The notes beneath the pieces were generated by a model, which was not told the DNA's origin, did not search any database, and worked only from the letters and a program-made list of their open reading frames with translations. The position numbers and the translations under genes are program-made. Source: a virus (taxonomy: Duplodnaviria > Heunggongvirae > Uroviricota > Caudoviricetes). Taken from it: 10,082 bases of DNA. Where the stretch lies: the IMG/VR virus record IMGVR_UViG_2541047688_000002. The stretch is one strand, 5' to 3'. This document shows, piece after piece, positions 1 through 10,082 of the stretch; the stretch's first letter is position 1; every line of letters begins with the position of its first letter.

Positions 1-905
1 GTCCACATGCCCGTGTTTTCACAGATCCACCGCCCGTTACTCTGGTCAAGCTCAGACTGATGGATCACACAGCCATGATGCTCACAAAGGTAGAAAACAC
101 TTTCTGGCTTATTCTTCTCCCACTTAAGACCGAAAGGCGAGGCATCATCGCCAAATTTCAGATACTGCTCCTCCCCACAGTGCGGACAGGGCACATAAAA
201 ACGCATGAAGTGTGCCGACTCGTTAGCGGCTTTTTCGATCTGGCAGGAGCCTTTGATTTTAGGCGTCGAGCCGCGAATGGATTTTGGCCATACAGAGCCC
301 TCAATACGTTTATCCCCCAGCAGGGTTGGCGAACCCTCTTTTTCAACATCCGGTTCGAACGAGGAAAGCTCGTCATAACAGACCACATCCACGGATTTTT
401 CACGGTAGTTTTTTGCTGCCGCACCACCCAGACACCAGAACCCCACACCGGAGGAAAAACGCTTCAGGGTGAGCGTATTATCGCGGTGTTTTCTTCCGAA
501 CCATGGAGCCAGCTCCAGCAATGCAGGAACATCCCTTATCGTTGGCTCAACATGAGATTTCATAAAATCTTCAGCAGCTGAGTCCGTGGGCTGAAAAAGA
601 AGGCTGTTGCGTGATTTATGCTCAATAAAATAAGCCTCCACTCCCAGCAACATCTTTGTATAACCAACACGGGCAGATTTAATCAGGTTAACCGTGCGAA
701 TCAGATCGTTGCCCATACAGTTCATGATGCCAACCTGAAACGGCAGTGTTTCCCATCGCCCCGGGGTATAAGACGACTCTTTAGGAAGGTAATAATGTTT
801 ATTGGCCCACTGAACTGTCGTCAGTGGAACAGGAATAATGAGAGATAAAAGCCCTGTAGCTATCGCACCGGCTGCATTAGCTGCCTTCTGCGCGTCTGAA
901 ATCAT
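1..905 (-). CDS. A: Terminase large subunit (lambda gpA-like), N-terminal ~301 codons; CDS continues past the window start
   Basis: Minus-strand frame reads continuously from ATG (revcomp of 903-905) to position 1: [13 protein letters not shown]...[27 protein letters not shown]...[35 protein letters not shown]. These match lambda gpA as recalled (e.g. [44 protein letters not shown]). The ATG lies 26 nt upstream of the Nu1 stop, the same overlap as in lambda. Absent from the ORF track because it runs off the window. Confidence 0.9.
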
Positions 906-1425
906 CGATCCACCCGCCCACGTTTTCACCGGCCTTAGCTGCAACATTGGAGGCTTTCGCGATTTCAGTTTTCACCACATCAAGGTGTGATGGTGAAATG
1001 TCCGGATATTTACGCTGTAATGTCAACGGCACACGCACAAGTATCCCCGAAATCTCCTGTGCCACACGTTGCAGAATGAAGGTAAACAGTTCAGTTTCCA
1101 GCACTACTCCGTCTTCACGGGCATTTTTCAGTTCCTGCGCATCTGCCTGCGCTTTTGTGAGCCGGTAGCGTTCATAGTCAATGGTGCCGGGTTGTAAATC
1201 TGACTCCGCTGCCGCACGCAAATCGTCCAGTTCTTTGCGGAGCTTTTCGTTTTCGATATCAGTTTCCCTCTGCGCATACCACTGAATTGCCATGGCAGTA
1301 TCAAATACAGATTCAATGCCCTTACTGCCTTTGGAGACGCAAGGGAGCCCCTGAGACTGCCAGCGTTCAATCGTCCGCGGGTCCACGTTGAAAATTTCGG
1401 CAAGCCTCTTTTTATTAACCTTCAT
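877..1425 (-). CDS. nu1: Terminase small subunit (lambda Nu1-like; nohD/nohB-type)
   Basis: ORF-track protein [29 protein letters not shown]...[29 protein letters not shown] closely parallels lambda Nu1 (MEVNKKQLADIFGASIRTIQNWQEQGMP...[28 protein letters not shown]). ATG at 1423-1425 (revcomp); sits between cos and gpA. Confidence 0.9.
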
Positions 1426-1625
1426 GAAAACAACCCATTATCAAATACAAGGCCCGACATGAAAACGCCAGAAAAAGGCATTTTCGGACACTTTCATGTC
1501 GGACCTTTACGGATGCAATATTAAAAAAAACAAAAAGTTATATTCGAGAAGTACCGACACGATTTTCCCTGAAAAATTTTCATAAATAGTGAAAAACCGC
1601 GAGGTCGCCGCCCCGTAACCTGTTG
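1426..1625 (-). other. cos DNA-packaging site: cosB (1426-1591), cosN 12-nt cohesive-end sequence (1592-1603), cosQ side (1604-1625)
   Basis: Revcomp of 1592-1603 is GGGCGGCGACCT, the lambda cohesive-end sequence. The adjacent minus-strand sequence GGGCGGCGACCTCGCGGTTTTTCACTATTTATGAAAATTTT matches the lambda left end as recalled. Revcomp of 1604-1612 is CAGGTTACG, as at the lambda right end. cosB holds inverted 11-bp repeats CCGACATGAAA (1454-1464) / TTTCATGTCGG (1493-1503) and an A-tract at 1524-1531, consistent with Nu1 R-sites and an IHF bend. Confidence 0.8.
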
Positions 1626-1761
1626 GATCGACGGAAAGGACCCGAAAACGAGAATAATTATCACTTACAGCAAGAATCGAATCTGATCTATTATGGTGCT
1701 TGCTATTATGTGCCGGCACAAGTGCGTCGTTTACCGTCATTTCACACAGAGGCATCATCAA

Positions 1762-2013
1762 ATGAAAATCAGAAATATTCTCGCTATCTCCCTTGCGACA
1801 TCATCCTTCAGTTGCCTGGCATTTAAATCCTCGCCCAATGTGCTACCAGGACCAACGAATCAACTAACTGCGGTAGAAAGTAAAATTATCGGACATTTTT
1901 ATGCCCCACACAGTACATTACCCGGAACAACCATCACAGGGACATGTGACGCCTCCCCCGTCCCGGGATGCACCTGTCCGTTTTGTACTATGCTGCGTAG
2001 CCAAAACCGATAA
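1762..2013 (+). CDS. Hypothetical small secreted protein (83 aa) with a Cys-rich C-terminus
   Basis: ATG at 1762 with AGAGG 10 nt upstream. N-terminus MKIRNILAISLATSSFSCLA looks like a signal peptide; C-terminus TGTCDASPVPGCTCPFC. Overlaps an alternative frame (1901-2074), so coding status is uncertain. Confidence 0.3.
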   Translation: MKIRNILAISLATSSFSCLAFKSSPNVLPGPTNQLTAVESKIIGHFYAPHSTLPGTTITGTCDASPVPGCTCPFCTMLRSQNR

Positions 2014-2074
2014 CATCCGCATTTACCTGGTATTCCATGATGAGTTCACGCAGCGACTGATAGAGGAAGGAAAG

Positions 2075-2254
2075 ATGGTTAGTAAAAGCAAGGCGCATTG
2101 CCGCCGCATGCTGCAGGCATTGCAACAGACGAGAGCAGGTATTTTTGACCAGTTGGAAAACTGCCAGCATACTTTGCCCGAGTATATCGCCATCTCATCG
2201 GAAACCAGTGCAACTCTTATTCATCGGGTTCCACCAGAGAAAAAGAAGAAATGA
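2075..2254 (+). CDS. Hypothetical 59-aa basic protein
   Basis: Strong SD GAGGAAGGAAAG immediately upstream of ATG 2075. Protein MVSKSKAHCRRMLQALQQTRAGIFDQLENCQHTLPEYIAISSETSATLIHRVPPEKKKK. Stop TGA overlaps the next ATG (ATGA at 2251-2254). Confidence 0.4.
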   Translation: MVSKSKAHCRRMLQALQQTRAGIFDQLENCQHTLPEYIAISSETSATLIHRVPPEKKKK

Positions 2255-2388
2255 ACAGTGAGGCGTTGTGTGGCATACAACGCCTTCTTCCATCATTCCT
2301 CGTCAGCCATGACAAAAATATAACCGCTGGCTCTTTCATTTTTCTCCTGCTTCCAGCCCCTCTCTACCTGGAAGCATCAAGGACGTGA
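2251..2388 (+). CDS. Hypothetical 45-aa hydrophobic peptide, translationally coupled to the upstream ORF
   Basis: ATG 2251-2253 overlaps the upstream stop (ATGA). Translation MNSEALCGIQRLLPSFLVSHDKNITAGSFIFLLLPAPLYLEASRT has a hydrophobic core. Below the ORF-track length cutoff. The 3' end overlaps the convergent lipoprotein gene by 12 nt. Confidence 0.3.
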   Translation: MNSEALCGIQRLLPSFLVSHDKNITAGSFIFLLLPAPLYLEASRT

Positions 2389-2703
2389 CGGCGTAAAGAT
2401 AAATTGTCTCTTCACTCCCTGACAGGGGCGATTCTTTTCAAATCGCCATTTCGCCATGGCCTTCACCACTTCATCACGAAACAAATTATGAGGCTCTGAG
2501 CGGAGAAAAACGATCCGTGTCACAGTCCCATCAGCACCAATATCGAACTTAACCTCAACCAGCCCCTTGATATAATTTGCTGCAGCATATTCCGGATATC
2601 GTGGATACACCGTCACTAATTGCCGGGGCTCATCAGCTTTTTGCTGCGAGCATCCCACTGCCAGGACAGATAACAGAAAAAGTAGTAAAAGGCGTCTTTT
2701 CAT
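2377..2703 (-). CDS. Prophage lipoprotein with a TonB C-terminal-domain fold (candidate TonB-CTD decoy); start at internal Met 19 of the track ORF
   Basis: ATG at 2701-2703 (revcomp) with AGGA 6 nt upstream. Signal peptide plus lipobox MKRRLLLLFLLSVLAVG|CSQQ (Ser at +2). Mature region YPRYPEYAAANYIKGLVEVKFDIGADGTVTRIVFLRSEPHNLFRDEVVKAMAKWRFE aligns with the E. coli TonB C-terminal domain as recalled ([54 protein letters not shown]). Confidence 0.75.
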   Translation of the reverse strand: MKRRLLLLFLLSVLAVGCSQQKADEPRQLVTVYPRYPEYAAANYIKGLVEVKFDIGADGTVTRIVFLRSEPHNLFRDEVVKAMAKWRFEKNRPCQGVKRQFIFTPSRP

Positions 2704-3183
2704 TTTTATTCCTACGGGTCTTATTCTGACAATATATCCTGTGTTCCAGACTGCCACATCACCACATCCTGTGCCATTATCTGACTCACATTACATACAT
2801 CGCATCGGGATACAGTAGTAGCACTTTCTGTAATACAGCTTCCTGTTTCTTCCACCATCGCACCGGGATAAACCCGCGAATCATTAACGCGGTAAAAACC
2901 CGGTGTGCATCGTTTTTAATTATTCCCGCACACTCACGCAGAAGGAATTCCCCGTCGGGCTACGGTCATGGTTAATGCGGGAATACGGCGACGATACAGC
3001 GCAGCTAAAAGGGTAATGGACGGATAGACCGGTTTATTTCATTCCACAGGATTCTGAGTGTCCCCAACTTCCTCCAATAGTCTGAGCCCACCTGTGTAGT
3101 TTTAATTTTCATCAATCCATTTAACTATCGTTTAATTGTTGTCACATAGGATTCTGCCGTTTTTAACAATGCAGGATAATAAG

Positions 3184-3477
3184 ATGAAAAAAATGTTGTT
3201 TTCTGCCGCTCTGGCAATGCTTATTACAGGATGTGCTCAACAGACGTTTACTGTTGGAAACAAACCTACAGCAGTAACACCAAAGGAAACCATCACCCAT
3301 CATTTCTTCGTTTCGGGAATTGGGCAGAAGAAAACTGTCGATGCAGCAAAAATTTGTGGTGGTGCAGAAAATGTTGTTAAAACAGAAACCCAGCAAACAT
3401 TCGTAAATGGATTGCTCGGTTTTATTACTTTAGGCATTTATACTCCGCTGGAAGCGCGTGTGTATTGCTCACAATAA
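3184..3477 (+). CDS. bor: Bor outer-membrane lipoprotein (serum-resistance lysogenic conversion protein)
   Basis: MKKMLFSAALAMLITGCAQQTFTVGNKPTAVTPKETITHHFFVSGIGQKKTVDAAKICGGAENVVKTETQQTFVNGLLGFITLGIYTPLEARVYCSQ is near-identical to lambda Bor as recalled. Lipobox LITGC; AGGA 7 nt upstream of ATG 3184. The track ORF begins further upstream at 3136. Confidence 0.9.
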   Translation: MKKMLFSAALAMLITGCAQQTFTVGNKPTAVTPKETITHHFFVSGIGQKKTVDAAKICGGAENVVKTETQQTFVNGLLGFITLGIYTPLEARVYCSQ

Positions 3478-3488
3478 TTGCATGAGTT

Positions 3489-3504
3489 GCCCATCGATAT
3501 GGGC
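3489..3504. other. Short palindrome GCCCATcgatATGGGC between the convergent bor and Rz 3' ends
   Basis: Perfect 6-bp stem with a 4-nt loop seen directly in the sequence; no adjacent T-tract, so terminator function is uncertain. Confidence 0.25.
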
Positions 3505-3508
3505 AGCT

Positions 3509-3970
3509 CTATCTGCACTGCTCATTAATATACTTCTGGGTTCCTTCCAGTTGTTTTTGCATAGTGATCAGCCTCTCTCTGAGGGTGAAATAATCCCGTT
3601 CAGCGGTGTCTGCCAGTCGGGGGGAGGCTGCATTATCCACGCCGGAGGCGGTGGTGGCTTCACGCACTGACTGACAGACTGCTTTGATGTGCAACCGACG
3701 ACGACCAGCGGCAACATCATCACGCAGAGCATCATTTTCAGCTTTCGCATCAGCTAACTCCTTCGTGTATTTTGCATCGAGCGCAGCAACATCACGCTGA
3801 CGCATCTGTATGTCAGTAATTGCCGCGTTCGCCAGCGTCAGTTCTCTGGCATTTTTGTCGCGCTGGGCTTTGTAGGTAATGGCGTTATCACGGTAATGAT
3901 TAACAGCCCATGACAGGCAGACGATGATGCAGATAACCAGAGCGGAGATAATCGCGGTTACTCTGTTCAT
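3509..3970 (-). CDS. Rz: Rz i-spanin (inner-membrane spanin subunit)
   Basis: [53 protein letters not shown]... matches lambda Rz as recalled. ATG (3968-3970 revcomp) overlaps the R stop as ATGA. The track ORF starts 4 codons earlier at a GTG. Confidence 0.9.
3568..3750 (-). CDS. Rz1: Rz1 o-spanin (outer-membrane lipoprotein) embedded in the +1 frame of Rz
   Basis: [60 protein letters not shown] has a lipobox VVGC and a proline-rich mature part; it matches lambda Rz1 as recalled and lies entirely inside Rz. Confidence 0.85.
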
Positions 3971-4464
3971 TGCTGACCCCACAAACAGATTTCACGCTCA
4001 ATCTCACGACGAGTCATGAGACCTTTCCATTGCTTACCGCCAGCATATGTCCAGCGACGTAGCTGATCACATGCGCCTTTGATATCGCCCTGGTTTATTT
4101 TGCGAAGAAGCGTCGATGTTCTGAAATTGCCAGCACCCACGTTGTAAACGAATGAGTAAAGAGCGCCGCGCATTGTTTCCGGTATATCGACTTTGATGTA
4201 CGGGTTAATTTGTCTGGCGACCGTGGCAAGGTCTTTATTCAGGAGGGCTTTGCATTCTGCTTTGGTATACGTTTTACCGAGCATGATGTCTTTTCCTGTA
4301 TGCCCGTGACATACAGTCCATACACCAACAATATCTTTGTATGGTATGTAGCTGACACCTTCCAGACCATCGTTACCACTTGGGCCAGTGATTAACACTG
4401 ATGCTATAGCAATTGCTCCGCCACCAATAGCAGCAGCAACGGCTTTTCGTAATGATGGAGGCAT
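3967..4464 (-). CDS. R: SAR endolysin (phage 21 R21-type lysozyme with an N-terminal signal-arrest-release domain)
   Basis: [44 protein letters not shown]... has a Gly/Ala-rich weakly hydrophobic N-terminal SAR segment followed by a lysozyme domain, matching phage 21 R as recalled. The start overlaps the S stop (TAATG). Confidence 0.9.
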
Positions 4465-4679
4465 TATTCACCTCTCGCAGCCTTGCGCTTATCTTCTTTA
4501 ATCTTGAAATAAAGGTTTGTCAGGTACGTCAGCAGGCCAAATACCAGGCTACCCAGCACACCTATTGCCGCCCACTGTGAGGGCGTGACTTTATCGAGCA
4601 ACTGTAAAAACCAGTACCCGGCACTACCTGCTGAGGTACCATAGGCGACACCCGTTGTTAACTTATCCATGGATTTCAT
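4464..4679 (-). CDS. S: Pinholin (phage 21 S21-type holin, class II, dual start)
   Basis: [71 protein letters not shown] has two transmembrane segments and a dual-start motif (Met1 and Met4), matching S21 as recalled. Confidence 0.9.
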
Positions 4680-4808
4680 AACCCCACCTCGCAGACAAAG
4701 CGGGTGTAAATTAAGGGGATACTACGTATCGCAATAAAGGCAGAAACGTAACAGATTCGGAGTCAGTGAATAACTCAGGTATTGGGTTATCAGCTAATAT
4801 CGAGACTC

Positions 4809-4842
4809 AAAAAATGGAAAAACCCGCTCGACGGCGGGTTTA
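4809..4842 (-). terminator. Putative intrinsic terminator (hairpin CCCGC-tcgacg-GCGGG flanked by an A-run and a T-run), stronger for the minus strand
   Basis: Stem 4823-4827 / 4834-4838. On the minus strand the stem is followed by UUUCCAUUUUUUG (revcomp of 4805-4820); on the plus strand only TTTA follows. Lies upstream of S on the late strand. Confidence 0.45.
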
Positions 4843-5267
4843 AGCTGTGTGACGAAGTAACCACTCTTAACAGCATAACCAATTTTTTACGTACGTAAAC
4901 TACTAAATGATATTTGTGAGAATGCCACCGAGTGTTCAAAACACCACCACAAATGCATAAGAAAACTTCAACAAATAACCAGTTAATAATTTCCGATGTT
5001 ATTTTTAGTTTGTTTAAATTAAGCTAAAGAATTATAGAGCACTTATAAATAAGTGCCATTAATATAAATTAGCTAATAGATTTATTTTTGTTCAGACAAG
5101 AGCCATGAATAGGATTAGATAGAAAAGGTTCAGATAAAAATAGAGATCTACTTCACAAATTAAATGAGAAACTAAAACTTACATCTTGAAATAATCACAT
5201 TGATTAGATGAATATTTATCGCGCAGTGACATCATTTTTTAATAAAAGTTCAAAAAAAGGGCGTACA

Positions 5268-6350
5268 ATGAAAAAATTAACAGTGGCAATTTCTGCTGTA
5301 GCTGCATCAGTACTGATGGCGATGTCTGCTCAGGCAGCTGAAATTTATAATAAAGACAGTAACAAGCTGGATCTATACGGGAAAGTTAATGCCAAGCACT
5401 ACTTCTCCTCTAATGATGCAGATGATGGTGATACTACTTATGCCCGTCTTGGCTTCAAAGGTGAAACCCAAATCAACGATCAACTGACTGGTTTCGGTCA
5501 GTGGGAATATGAATTCAAAGGCAACCGTGCTGAATCTCAAGGTTCTTCCAAAGACAAAACCCGTCTTGCATTTGCAGGCCTGAAATTTGGTGATTACGGC
5601 TCAATCGATTACGGCCGTAACTACGGTGTAGCATACGACATCGGTGCGTGGACTGACGTTCTGCCAGAATTCGGTGGTGATACCTGGACCCAAACAGATG
5701 TGTTCATGACTGGTCGCACTACTGGTGTTGCAACTTATCGTAACAACGACTTCTTTGGTCTGGTCGATGGCCTGAACTTTGCTGCTCAGTATCAGGGTAA
5801 AAATGACCGCACTGACGTAACTGAAGCCAATGGTGATGGTTTCGGTTTCTCCACTACTTATGAGTATGAAGGATTCGGCGTGGGTGCAACCTATGCTAAA
5901 TCAGATCGCACTGACGGTCAGGTCGCCTATGGTAAGAGCAAATTCAATGCCTCCGGCAAAAATGCGGAAGTATGGGCTGCAGGCCTGAAATATGATGCGA
6001 ACAATATCTATCTGGCTACCACATATTCTGAAACTCAGAATATGACCGTTTTTGGTAATAACCATATTGCAAACAAAGCACAAAACTTTGAAGCAGTAGC
6101 ACAATATCAGTTTGACTTCGGTCTGCGTCCATCTGTTGCTTACCTTCAGTCAAAAGGTAAAGACCTTGGTGTTCATGGTGACCGAGACTTAGTCAAGTAT
6201 GTCGATGTCGGTGCTACTTACTACTTTAATAAAAACATGTCCACTTTTGTTGATTACAAAATCAACTTAATTGACGATAGTAAGTTTACCAAAACAGCTG
6301 GTATTGATACCGACGACATCGTCGCTGTAGGTCTGGTTTATCAGTTCTAA
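5268..6350 (+). CDS. nmpC: General diffusion porin of the OmpC/OmpF/PhoE family, prophage-encoded (NmpC / Lc-type)
   Basis: Signal peptide [23 protein letters not shown]|AEIYNK; porin hallmarks ([17 protein letters not shown]..., C-terminal VAVGLVYQF ending in Phe). Position between Q and S matches nmpC in DLP12 and lc in PA-2. The track ORF begins at 5208, but 5268 gives a proper signal peptide and an AAGGG SD. Confidence 0.9.
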
Positions 6351-6361
6351 TCTGACTTACG

Positions 6362-6401
6362 AAAAAGATATGTTGCGGGAGGCTTTGCCTCCGCAACATA
6401 T
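6362..6401 (-). terminator. Putative tR'-like intrinsic terminator for the late (minus-strand) transcript
   Basis: Imperfect 14-15-bp inverted repeat ATATGTTGCGGGAGG / CCTCCGCAACATAT (6368-6401). On the minus strand it is followed by CUUUUUCG (revcomp of 6360-6367). It ends about 180 nt downstream of the Q stop, comparable to the lambda pR'-tR' distance. Confidence 0.5.
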
Positions 6402-6538
6402 AAGTGGAGCCCTCAAGCCACTTCCTTTAGAAGCACTACCTTGCTTCTTACTATATAAACCTTCTGTTATATATTACCCTTTATTTTGGGGGCGTTTCCA
6501 CGCCCCATTTTTAATAACTTTTAGTAAACAATTGCATA
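6402..6538 (-). promoter_or_regulatory. Predicted late promoter pR' / qut region downstream of Q (exact -35/-10 not resolved)
   Basis: Positional inference from lambdoid late-operon architecture (Q, then pR'/qut, then tR'). AT-rich with several TATAAT-like hexamers on the minus strand (TATTAA, TAATAT, TATAGT); no confident -35/-10 pairing could be made by eye. Confidence 0.35.
6489..6512 (+). terminator. Putative intrinsic terminator for the porin transcript
   Basis: GGGGCGT-ttcc-ACGCCCC, a 7-bp GC-rich stem (6489-6506), followed by ATTTTT on the plus strand; about 140 nt downstream of the porin stop. Confidence 0.5.
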
Positions 6539-6922
6539 TCAATTAGAATTATTAGCAACGATATCCATATCTAACCGGATATCTAATGCCATTAACATCC
6601 CTTCAATTATGCCCTCAGCCTTCTGTAACCTTTTCCCGATATAACCATCCGAGCAGCAATGCTTACTTGCCAGTGACATGAATGTCATACCACATACATA
6701 ATAATCTACTAATAAATCGTGTAAATCGCTGTTGTTCTTTTTCAGACGGGCCATGCACCCGCAAATGATCATCGCGTCATCGTCACAACATTGCGGGCGA
6801 GATTTTACTTTTGAAGGAATTAATCCCTTAAAACCGGCGGCAATGGACGACCAGGTCACATCTTCATGATTATTAGCCGCCCACGCCCCCCAACGCTCAA
6901 GAACCATCTGAATATCACGCAT
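6539..6922 (-). CDS. Q: Late-gene antiterminator Q (QuuD / phage 21-82 type)
   Basis: [62 protein letters not shown]... matches DLP12 QuuD as recalled, with a Cys-rich zinc-binding region. ATG at 6920-6922 (revcomp); the track start 5 codons upstream is a TTG. Confidence 0.85.
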
Positions 6923-7007
6923 CAACTTACTCCACAAAAATCAGACCAGAACGCCAATTACAAGCAAAAATCAACAAAACAGTATTAGTTGATTGTTATC
7001 TCTGACT

Positions 7008-7148
7008 TCATACTCCTGTTCCTGTCAGGGTTTTGGCGTAATTCTTCAGTATTCGGTAATCGGTCAAAACAGAACCGAGGAAACGATATAAGCGCAGACG
7101 CCCCCAGCGGTGGCGAAGAAGTTCTGCCATATTAAACTCAAACATCAT
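7008..7148 (-). CDS. ylcG: YlcG-like small protein (46 aa) of the lambdoid nin region
   Basis: Translation MMFEFNMAELLRHRWGRLRLYRFLGSVLTDYRILKNYAKTLTGTGV matches DLP12 YlcG as recalled; its start overlaps the rusA stop. Below the ORF-track length cutoff. Confidence 0.6.
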   Translation of the reverse strand: MMFEFNMAELLRHRWGRLRLYRFLGSVLTDYRILKNYAKTLTGTGV

Positions 7149-7196
7149 TCATTCCCCATTTCGGTGATGGTCAGTTCCAGCCTCCCACCTTTGGTA
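7145..7196 (-). pseudogene. rusA: 3' remnant of rusA (Holliday-junction resolvase), last 16 codons only, truncated by IS911
   Basis: Minus-strand translation immediately left of the IS911 end is TKGGRLELTITEMGNE-stop, matching the RusA C-terminus as recalled. The rest of the gene is not found on the other side of the IS. Confidence 0.6.
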
Positions 7197-7232
7197 TGAA
7201 GTGGTTTACTGAATTTGGCCACCTGAACAGAG
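7197..7232 (+). repeat. IS911 left terminal inverted repeat (IRL)
   Basis: Begins TGAAGTGG; pairs with the right end at 8411-8446. Confidence 0.8.
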
Positions 7233-7268
7233 GTGATATGCTCACCTCAGAACAACACAGGTGCCATA

Positions 7269-8446
<1,178 letters not shown>

Positions 8447-8806: not shown

Positions 8807-8893
8807 ATGGAAGAAGAATTTGAAGAGTTCGAAGAGCATCCTCAAGATGTGATGGAACAATACCAGGACTATCCGTATGACTACGACTATTGA
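8807..8893 (+). CDS. Hypothetical 28-aa highly acidic, aromatic-rich peptide
   Basis: Strong SD AAGGTG 5 nt upstream of ATG 8807. Translation MEEEFEEFEEHPQDVMEQYQDYPYDYDY. Overlaps the start of the next ORF by 17 nt. Below the ORF-track cutoff. Confidence 0.35.
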   Translation: MEEEFEEFEEHPQDVMEQYQDYPYDYDY

Positions 8894-9077
8894 TACAAAT
8901 CAATGGTGTGGACAATTCAAACGATGCAATGGATGCAAGCTGCAATCGGAATGCATGGTTAAGCCTGAAGAAATGTTTCCTGTAATGGAAGATGGGAAAT
9001 ATGTCGATAAATGGGCAATACGAACGACGGCAATGATTGCCAGAGAACTTGGTAAACAGAACAACAAAGCTGCCTGA
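8877..9077 (+). CDS. Hypothetical 66-aa Cys-rich protein (possible zinc-ribbon)
   Basis: MTTTIDTNQWCGQFKRCNGCKLQSECMVKPEEMFPVMEDGKYVDKWAIRTTAMIARELGKQNNKAA contains C-x5-C-x2-C-x5-C. The start lies inside the upstream acidic-peptide ORF, suggesting coupling. Confidence 0.45.
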   Translation: MTTTIDTNQWCGQFKRCNGCKLQSECMVKPEEMFPVMEDGKYVDKWAIRTTAMIARELGKQNNKAA

Positions 9078-9259: not shown

Positions 9260-9628
9260 ATGTCAAACATCAAAAAATACATCATTGATTACGACTGGAA
9301 AGCATCAATAGAAATTGAAATTGACCATGACGTAATGACAGAGGAAAAACTTCACCAGATTAATAATTTCTGGTCAGACTCTGAATACCGACTCAATAAA
9401 CACGGCTCTGTATTAAATGCTGTATTAATCATGCTGGCGCAACATGCTCTGCTTATAGCAATTTCAAGCGACTTAAATGCATATGGTGTTGTGTGTGAGT
9501 TCGACTGGAATGATGGAAATGGTCAGGAAGGATGGCCTCCAATGGATGGTAGTGAAGGAATAAGAATTACCGATATCGATACATCAGGAATATTTGATTC
9601 AGATGATATGACTATCAAGGCCGCCTGA
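9260..9628 (+). CDS. Hypothetical 122-aa strongly acidic protein
   Basis: GAGGA 9 nt upstream of ATG 9260. About 22 Asp/Glu against about 8 Lys/Arg, with a C-terminal region rich in D/G/S (DWNDGNGQEGWPPMDGSEGIRITDIDTSGIFDSDDM). No family recognised from memory. Confidence 0.45.
   Translation: MSNIKKYIIDYDWKASIEIEIDHDVMTEEKLHQINNFWSDSEYRLNKHGSVLNAVLIMLAQHALLIAISSDLNAYGVVCEFDWNDGNGQEGWPPMDGSEGIRITDIDTSGIFDSDDMTIKAA

Positions 9629-9662: not shown

Positions 9663-10082
<420 letters not shown>

Follow-up and report, generated by a model that had tools for sequence, protein, structure and literature searches.

Some phage-borne genes that change the cell envelope of the host are well described. 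Porins of the NmpC/Lc type are textbook lysogenic-conversion genes, adding or replacing a general diffusion pore and altering the surface loops met by phages and antibodies, and so is bor/iss, which raises serum survival as known for lambda Bor and Iss. Another kind of phage-encoded envelope protein is represented by Cor and Llp, outer-membrane lipoproteins which inactivate the TonB-dependent receptor FhuA from the periplasmic side. Here we analyse a stretch of 10,082 nucleotides from the IMG/VR virus record IMGVR_UViG_2541047688_000002 (Caudoviricetes), hereafter called the window, which encodes a general porin, a Bor/Iss lipoprotein and a small lipoprotein with a TonB C-terminal domain (CTD). 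An earlier note, made from the sequence alone, had taken these genes for a coordinated envelope-remodelling module. Our analysis indicates instead that the window is most probably the Q-lysis-cos region of a phage-21-like lambdoid prophage, in which three envelope cargo genes ("morons") were acquired independently, each in an insertion slot of its own that is often occupied. The TonB-domain lipoprotein among them is annotated but belongs to an uncharacterised family, and we tentatively consider that it might act as a decoy for TonB boxes.

The prophage itself can be identified closely. Positions 1-7196 of the window are 99.9-100% identical to the prophage of E. coli CFT073 and Nissle 1917, and positions 2200-6600 are matched at 100% in CFT073, Nissle 1917, ATCC 25922 and many further genomes, as well as in the inducible phages ev017 and PhiR57_1, where the same three genes are annotated. 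The whole arrangement, an ordinary textbook case of cargo slots in lambdoid phages, is already known and annotated (CFT073, Nissle 1917, ATCC 25922, phages 21 and ev017), and the RefSeq names "porin OmpC", "increased serum survival lipoprotein Iss" and "TonB family protein" are already in place. The span 2377-6350, in which the earlier note had located three envelope genes, runs exactly from the stop codon of the TonB-domain gene to that of the porin gene, and profile matches confirm all three: Pfam Porin_1 (PF00267) at 2.2e-151 and 504.5 bits (cut-off 23.7) over profile positions 1-337 of 337, Pfam Lambda_Bor (PF06291) at 1.7e-30 and 105.4 bits (cut-off 25), and Pfam TonB_C at 1.1e-12 and 48.7 bits (cut-off 24.6). 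The note had further described all three as transcribed against the late operon, which is right for the porin and Bor on the plus strand and wrong for the TonB-domain gene, which lies on the minus strand together with the late genes Q, S, R, Rz/Rz1 and Nu1. From the position of cosN (Table 1) it follows that the virion DNA ends on the right with the stretch reaching from Rz to about 1600, and that the block with the TonB-domain gene lies at its extreme right end. PADLOC gave no match for the porin, Bor/Iss, the TonB-domain protein or the truncated SieB.

Two of the three genes have close described relatives. The porin matches the NCBIfam porin OmpC profile at 1.5e-156 and 521 bits (cut-off 484), and the nearest solved structures are OmpC and OmpK36/37 at about 1e-137. 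Its reading frame opens at 5208, a better start being MKKLTVAIS, which is identical to the RefSeq start; the translation has a Sec signal peptide ending before AE, the L3 motif PEFGGD and a C-terminal Phe (...VGLVYQF). Like NmpC of DLP12, Lc of phage PA-2 and OmpD, it is a porin of the OmpC/OmpF/PhoE family whose gene lies, in reverse orientation, between Q and the lysis genes, and its place between Q and S, its orientation and the presence of its protein (c1560) in uninduced CFT073 all agree with the NmpC/Lc type. It shares with K-12 nmpC expression in the lysogen and thermoregulation, but the gene is intact here, whereas IS5 interrupts it in K-12 and 434B. The protein is 91% identical to DLP12 NmpC, and nearly all differences, two indels included, fall in residues 181-232 (window 5808-5963), which probably form surface loops, as expected from diversifying selection by phages or antibodies. 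The Bor/Iss protein (lipobox LITGC followed by A) is identical to lambda Bor at 90 of 97 residues (93%), with a common lipobox and the same place and opposite-strand orientation after Rz; the difference lies in seven substitutions of the window allele, all within the first 32 residues, that is, in the signal peptide and the mature N-terminus. The Iss lipoproteins of ColV plasmids and chromosomes belong to the same family, and Iss is the name given in RefSeq. Within the TonB-domain gene there is a strong promoter-like site facing bor (2549-2576, plus strand, TTAACC-16 nt-TATAAT, 10 of 12 matches, TG upstream), which could serve for an antisense RNA or as a distal bor promoter, or could be a chance match.

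With regard to whether the three genes belong together, they form three transcription units on two strands, each in a separate slot (the porin between Q and S, Bor directly after Rz, the TonB-domain gene between bor and cos), and the lysis cassette (S, R, Rz/Rz1) lies between them. We counted their combinations in IMG/VR loci in which the TonB-domain gene is preceded by 4.6 kb of DNA or more: all three genes occur in 14 of these 62 loci, Bor and the TonB-domain gene in 26, and the TonB-domain gene alone in 22. Another 58 loci have an identical porin and sufficient flanking sequence; the porin is the only one of the three genes in 33 of them, is joined by Bor in 13 and is part of the full trio in 12. 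The full trio is hence present in about 21-23% of related loci carrying one of the genes. Individual phages give the same picture. Phage 21 possesses the TonB-domain gene and Bor, but tRNAs stand between pR' and S in place of a porin, and PhiR47_2 likewise has those two genes without the porin; in 434B, 2G7b, ev207, ev243, mEp332 and others the porin is accompanied by Bor, the TonB-domain gene is missing and the alignments start at window 2865-3130; and the Stx-type phages Lys8385Vzw and JLK-2012 have a 72% allele of the TonB-domain gene and neither Bor nor porin. Every sub-combination was seen except the porin with the TonB-domain gene and no Bor. What weighs against reading much into these counts is that they come from redundant isolate collections and are uncorrected for kinship; the occurrence of nearly every gene combination, however, holds regardless of phylogenetic correction, and it therefore indicates that the three genes recombine independently, as the lambdoid mosaic model predicts. 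In complete E. coli genomes, the full trio extends only to about rank 300-400 of the 5988 records matching 2377-6350, as estimated from an evenly spaced ranking of these matches, and the genomes bearing it are mostly B2 extraintestinal pathogenic E. coli (ExPEC), e.g. Nissle, ST95, PMV-1 and CFT073. The trio thus probably marks the descent of one prophage lineage in B2 ExPEC rather than a selected module.

Expression in the lysogen can be read from Table S1 of PMC12890032, which gives RNA and proteome of CFT073, carrying the identical prophage, at 37 °C versus 23 °C. Among the prophage genes in this table, protein values exist only for c1544 (DUF1828), c1560 (porin), c1564 (Iss) and c1565 (TonB family), and there are none for Q, holin, endolysin, terminase, portal, capsid/head or tail in the uninduced culture (PMC12890032). 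The log2 fold changes for 37 °C over 23 °C are 6.45 in RNA and 2.67 in protein for the porin, 2.18 and 1.64 for Iss, and 1.07 and 0.85 for the TonB-domain protein (PMC12890032). NmpC (c1560) was also found in the proteome of urine-grown CFT073. The earlier note had made its view of three conversion-type envelope proteins depend both on their expression in the lysogen and on their co-occurrence in related prophages. The former is borne out, since each of the three was found as protein in the uninduced strain and was more abundant at 37 °C than at 23 °C, which also supports a conversion-type role of the TonB-domain protein despite its late-strand orientation; the latter largely fails, since in most of the related prophages the three do not occur together. 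The rise at 37 °C extends beyond the three genes: the RNAs of c1559-c1565 (Q, porin, S, R, Iss and the TonB-domain gene) all increase, with log2 fold changes of 1.1-6.5, and those of the terminase and all later genes are unchanged (PMC12890032), so a thermoregulated transcription domain (window 2377-6922) seems to end near cos. The region upstream of the porin is AT-rich, with 31-33% GC at 4751-5500, which, as a speculation, fits silencing of the H-NS type.

These data also allow the module proposed by the earlier note to be weighed, i.e. that the three genes are co-selected and jointly change receptor availability and serum sensitivity. It is true that all three lie within 4 kb and encode envelope proteins, that only one other prophage protein was detected in uninduced CFT073 besides these three, all of which go up at 37 °C in RNA and protein, and that the trio is 100% identical across several hundred B2 ExPEC genomes. 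However, the last of these points reflects clonal descent, and the neighbouring Q, S and R RNAs rise at 37 °C as well, so that the increase may be a regional effect. Together with the division into three units on two strands around the lysis cassette, the small share of loci with the full trio, the missing porin of phage 21 and the many phages without the TonB-domain gene, this makes a coordinated module improbable, and we keep to three independently acquired cargo genes.

The TonB-domain protein, the least described of the three, consists of a signal peptide with lipobox and a complete TonB CTD, joined by a tether of about 8 residues. Its N-terminus, MKRRLLLLFLLSVLAVGC followed by SQQ, is a lipoprotein signal peptide with the lipobox LAVGC and Ser at +2. 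In addition to the TonB_C match, the only one in the Pfam scan, it matches TIGR01352 at 46.9 bits (cut-off 27.1) and aligns without gaps to E. coli TonB 150-230 (1U07, 2GRX, 2GSK) with an E-value of about 1e-14 and 32 of 80 residues identical; the domain corresponds to TonB 150-235. The TonB positions kept, among them the YP motif, are Y163, P161/P164, F180, G186, F202, W213 and F230, and Y215 is changed to F. Sequence and profile matches reveal no TonB transmembrane anchor, ExbBD-coupling region or Pro-rich spacer, and the NCBIfam TonB equivalogs match only at about profile positions 150-240, with 44-69 bits against cut-offs of 265-448. Lacking the membrane anchor and the ExbBD-coupling region, the protein cannot transduce energy and is not a TonB. 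Compared with the CTD of E. coli TonB (150-239), it is alike in the gap-free 40% identity over 80 residues, the YP motif and the predicted alpha-beta-beta-alpha-beta order, and it differs in being lipid-anchored through its N-terminal Cys, with neither anchor nor Pro-rich spacer. An AF2 model built on a 5-sequence alignment is of low confidence (pLDDT 59.5) and was used for the secondary-structure order and for ranking by Foldseek only, with no conclusion on interfaces; it has the same alpha-beta-beta-alpha-beta order, and TonB CTDs, including 2GSK and 2GRX, rank first in the search with it.

The gene is real and under selection rather than a decaying fragment. Against the 72% allele it shows a ratio of nonsynonymous to synonymous substitution rates (dN/dS) of 0.12 at a dS of about 1.5. 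It is present in 1225 of 5426 complete E. coli genomes (about 23%), with the open reading frame (ORF) intact in 1221 of the 1225, and the copy of phage 21 is 100% identical to that of the window. A lipobox is kept across the homologs, as LAVGC followed by S in the 21-type, VMGC followed by T in the JLK/Stx-type and LLGC followed by S in a Klebsiella phage, and also in more distant ones. By the sorting rule of the Lol system, a lipoprotein without Asp at +2 goes to the outer membrane; none of the homologs examined has Asp at this position, so outer-membrane sorting is predicted for the TonB-domain protein. As for context, the gene lies between the lysis and terminase genes, co-oriented with the late genes, in at least 5 backbones (lambda/21-like, JLK-2012/Stx-like with HNH and terminase, a Klebsiella phage, an HK97-like contig and a Sodalis prophage), and it is on the late strand in every related phage examined, e.g. 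phage 21, PhiR47_2, JLK-2012, the Klebsiella phage and the Sodalis prophage. The right edge of its mobile block, taken from the alignment starts of the other phages, is at about 2865-2895, and the 45-aa ORF which the block also contains (Table 1) has no family match. Outside prophages there are chromosomal singleton homologs (39-49% identical) in Raoultella and Klebsiella (our loci L176-L179), in Erwinia (L182-L183) and at locus L171; those of Raoultella and Klebsiella lie between a lacZ/lacI pair and an alpha/beta-hydrolase gene, and the singleton of another lineage adjoins ahpC and a GST gene. One further match, L175 (NZ_SJEX01000172.1, "Modestobacter excelsi", 418 nt), contains residues 1-67 of the TonB-domain protein at 100% amino-acid identity and is most likely contamination of an actinobacterial assembly.

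Concerning what this protein does, we tentatively favour an outer-membrane-anchored decoy for TonB boxes, a reading which stands somewhat short of likely. Fixed to the outer membrane by its tether of about 8 residues, a TonB domain that is not energised would be placed at the site where TonB boxes reach the periplasm. With its box-pairing domain intact and not energisable by ExbBD, it could capture the TonB boxes of transporters or of incoming group B colicins. Such capture would make it harder for phages, group B colicins and microcins to enter by TonB-dependent routes, and would to some extent impair siderophore uptake as well. A precedent is that an overproduced periplasmic TonB domain inhibits TonB-dependent import (Howard et al. 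2001, as summarised in PMC9841981). Cor and Llp are another, as phage lipoproteins that do shut off a TonB-dependent receptor from its periplasmic face. That the decoy would give the lysogen a broad, receptor-independent protection against TonB-dependent phages, colicins and microcins is a further step, and we regard it as rather doubtful. Several points weigh against the decoy. The native receptor of phage 21 is LamB, which is not TonB-dependent, and the TonB-domain protein would therefore not exclude its own phage; OmpC had been considered as the phage 21 receptor too, which would have tied the porin to self-exclusion, and was dropped given LamB as the native receptor. An inhibitor of TonB should be costly for a uropathogen relying on TonB-driven iron uptake, R158, Q160 and R166 in the contact region of TonB are replaced by T, Y and Y in the lipoprotein, the chromosomal homologs suggest a general envelope role, and our literature search found no paper or experiment on a phage TonB-domain lipoprotein.

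Some of these points lead directly to the alternative that the lipoprotein is functional without being a TonB-box decoy, for instance as a tether between the outer membrane and peptidoglycan or an envelope protein, or as a binder of an unrelated periplasmic ligand. The chromosomal singletons, which have lacZ/lacI as neighbours in Raoultella and Klebsiella and ahpC in the other lineage, would fit a housekeeping role in the envelope, and the three changed residues and the apparent cost to uropathogenic E. coli (UPEC) fit it as well. Besides, TonB CTD and TolA domain III folds bind varied partners, and the weak Foldseek matches of our model include TolA-III complexes with phage g3p and colicins. 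On the other hand, it is the whole box-pairing domain with its conserved aromatics that is under purifying selection, and true TonB CTDs, among them those in structures with BtuB and FhuA, come closest to the protein in both sequence and fold; we therefore hold this alternative to be possible but unlikely. A different suggestion is that the protein is not a conversion protein at all but a late lytic one, a lysis or spanin accessory or a protection of progeny, made from pR' with S, R and Rz. The gene is indeed on the late strand, always just past the lysis cassette; we found no minus-strand terminator-like site between Rz and the gene and no consensus-like minus-strand promoter upstream of it; and its RNA rises at 37 °C together with essD and rrrD. 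The PHROGs scan, with matches to phrog_1267 and phrog_34172 only, adds the label "Rz-like spanin" (lysis category) of phrog_1267. The missing promoter, the label, and the fact that S, R and Rz are small membrane proteins easily missed by proteomics, so that low-level read-through of the lysis transcript may occur, count against a conversion protein. But the protein has no spanin features, i.e. neither a C-terminal hydrophobic or transmembrane segment nor a short Pro-rich mature part, its single non-lipid Cys is not conserved among homologs, and the phage already has a complete Rz/Rz1 pair, so the label is probably a positional mis-annotation. What is more, the TonB-domain protein is seen in the uninduced lysogen while structural, terminase and lysis proteins are not, and homologs occur in non-phage chromosomal contexts, which together make a late lytic protein very unlikely. 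Finally, several phage records call the product a "partial tonB-like membrane protein" or a "TonB fragment", and the domain does cover only the last 80 or so residues of TonB, as a functionless, decaying piece of host tonB might. This was rejected as hardly credible, being contradicted by the selection and expression data: the gene has acquired a signal peptide of the lipoprotein type, which is kept in alleles 38-72% identical, the low dN/dS and the nearly always intact ORF speak of constraint, and the protein is detected by mass spectrometry.

Regarding the slot of the porin, a 43-nt block at 4818-4860, which holds the strong hairpin between S and the candidate pR' (Table 1), is kept in porin-less phages. 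In two porin-less loci (L013 and L085, whose Q is 53% identical) it follows shortly after Q, and in two others (L010 and L066, with a Q of 84-85% identity) it lies further downstream, at 0.6-2.4 kb from Q. These positions suggest that the porin gene was inserted between Q and the pR'/tR' block, and the terminator-like hairpins suggest that it is insulated on both sides. There are two candidates for pR', one at 5059-5031 with the terminator at 4841-4820, and the other a promoter immediately past Q, paired with the hairpin at about 6396-6360; the conserved terminator block favours the former, and the record of phage 434B has no pR' annotation.

Beyond the three cargo genes, an unannotated 83-aa ORF at 1762-2013 on the plus strand adjoins cos, opposite to the late strand. 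It has a signal-peptide-like N-terminus (MKIRNILAISLATSSFSCLA) and a Cys-rich C-terminus (TGTCDASPVPGCTCPFC), no family match, and is intact in 87 of the 87 fetched loci bearing it; in the phage collection it occurs only in seven records, all with the phage-21-type TonB-domain block (21, PhiR47_2, PhiR63_2, PhiR57_1, ev017 twice, and Perceval). From these features it could be a fourth secreted cargo protein. The overlapping RefSeq hypothetical C_RS29640 may not be a real gene, for it has in-frame stops in 22 fetched loci. At the other end of the window, two IS3-family copies enclose three genes, namely truncated sieB, ral and one for a DUF2528 protein. The nin, replication and immunity genes which CFT073 has between Q and sieB are missing, so this copy of the prophage is rearranged and probably defective, and none of the complete E. 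coli genomes has more than 76% of the window contiguous. All three envelope genes are intact in the rearranged copy.

Table 1. Features of the window, with position, strand and annotation or supporting match
Feature	Position	Strand	Annotation or support
Terminase small subunit Nu1, first gene past cos	877-1425	-	Pfam Phage_Nu1 3.6e-82
Lambda cohesive-end sequence cosN, GGGCGGCGACCT	1602-1613	-	1 match, 0 expected by chance
RefSeq hypothetical C_RS29640	1988-2170	-	phrog_3744, unknown function
TonB-domain lipoprotein, 108 aa, between bor and cos	2377-2703	-	RefSeq C_RS07335/c1565
45-aa ORF just upstream of TonB-domain gene, in its mobile block	2721-2858	-	annotated with ribosome-binding site in phage 21
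Bor/Iss outer-membrane lipoprotein, directly after Rz	3184-3477	+	RefSeq iss C_RS07330/c1564
Rz i-spanin	3509-3970	-	Pfam Phage_lysis 8.2e-54
Rz1 o-spanin, embedded in Rz	3568-3750	-	Pfam Rz1 2.9e-20
Endolysin R, R21/RrrD type	3967-4464	-	Pfam Phage_lysozyme 1.3e-45; 100% to phage 21 R
Class II holin/pinholin S, phage-21 type	4464-4679	-	Pfam Phage_holin_2_1 2e-35; RefSeq essD
Terminator-like hairpin (strong), between candidate pR' and S, candidate tR'	4820-4841	-	sequence
Sigma-70 promoter-like site ATGGCA-17-TATAAT, 5' of S, candidate pR'	5031-5059	-	sequence
OmpC-family general porin (NmpC/Lc/OmpD type), between Q and lysis genes	5268-6350	+	RefSeq C_RS07310/c1560
Hairpin and T run after Q	~6360-6396	-	sequence
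Terminator-like hairpin and T run, 3' of porin	6489-6506	+	sequence
Late antiterminator Q, QuuD type	6539-6922	-	Pfam Phage_antitermQ 7.7e-54; RefSeq quuD
IS3-family (ISEc52-like) element	7197-8446		27-nt imperfect terminal inverted repeats
Truncated sieB, between IS copies	to 8663	-	
ral, between IS copies	8877-9077	+	
DUF2528 gene, between IS copies	9260-9628	+	
Second IS3-family copy, inverted, partial	9663-10082 (window end)		420 nt, 100% identical

What is gained is, on the one hand, a corrected view of the locus, with the genes as independent cargo and the TonB-domain gene running with the late genes. On the other hand, if the lipoprotein does disturb TonB-dependent uptake, this would bear on phage and colicin sensitivity, on the uptake of siderophore antibiotics and on iron acquisition in uropathogenic and probiotic strains; should the decoy reading be true, about 23% of sequenced E. 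coli, CFT073 and Nissle 1917 among them, would carry a generic counterpart to Cor and Llp, which are receptor-specific. Cor (phi80, N15, T1) and Llp (T5) resemble it as small phage-encoded lipoproteins, its own outer-membrane location being predicted, and we use them as a working analogy: the likeness is one of analogy, its Pfam and PHROGs matches being to TonB_C, phrog_1267 and phrog_34172 only. They differ from it in that each targets one receptor, whereas a decoy would act on the TonB box shared by many receptors or colicins. The periplasmic TonB fragments of Howard et al. (2001), as summarised in PMC9841981, are likewise a TonB periplasmic domain uncoupled from ExbBD, but they are artificial, overexpressed and soluble, while the protein in the window is natural, lipid-anchored and made at its native level. 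On the matches obtained, the TonB-domain lipoprotein would be placed neither with the Cor/Llp proteins nor with the artificial TonB fragments.

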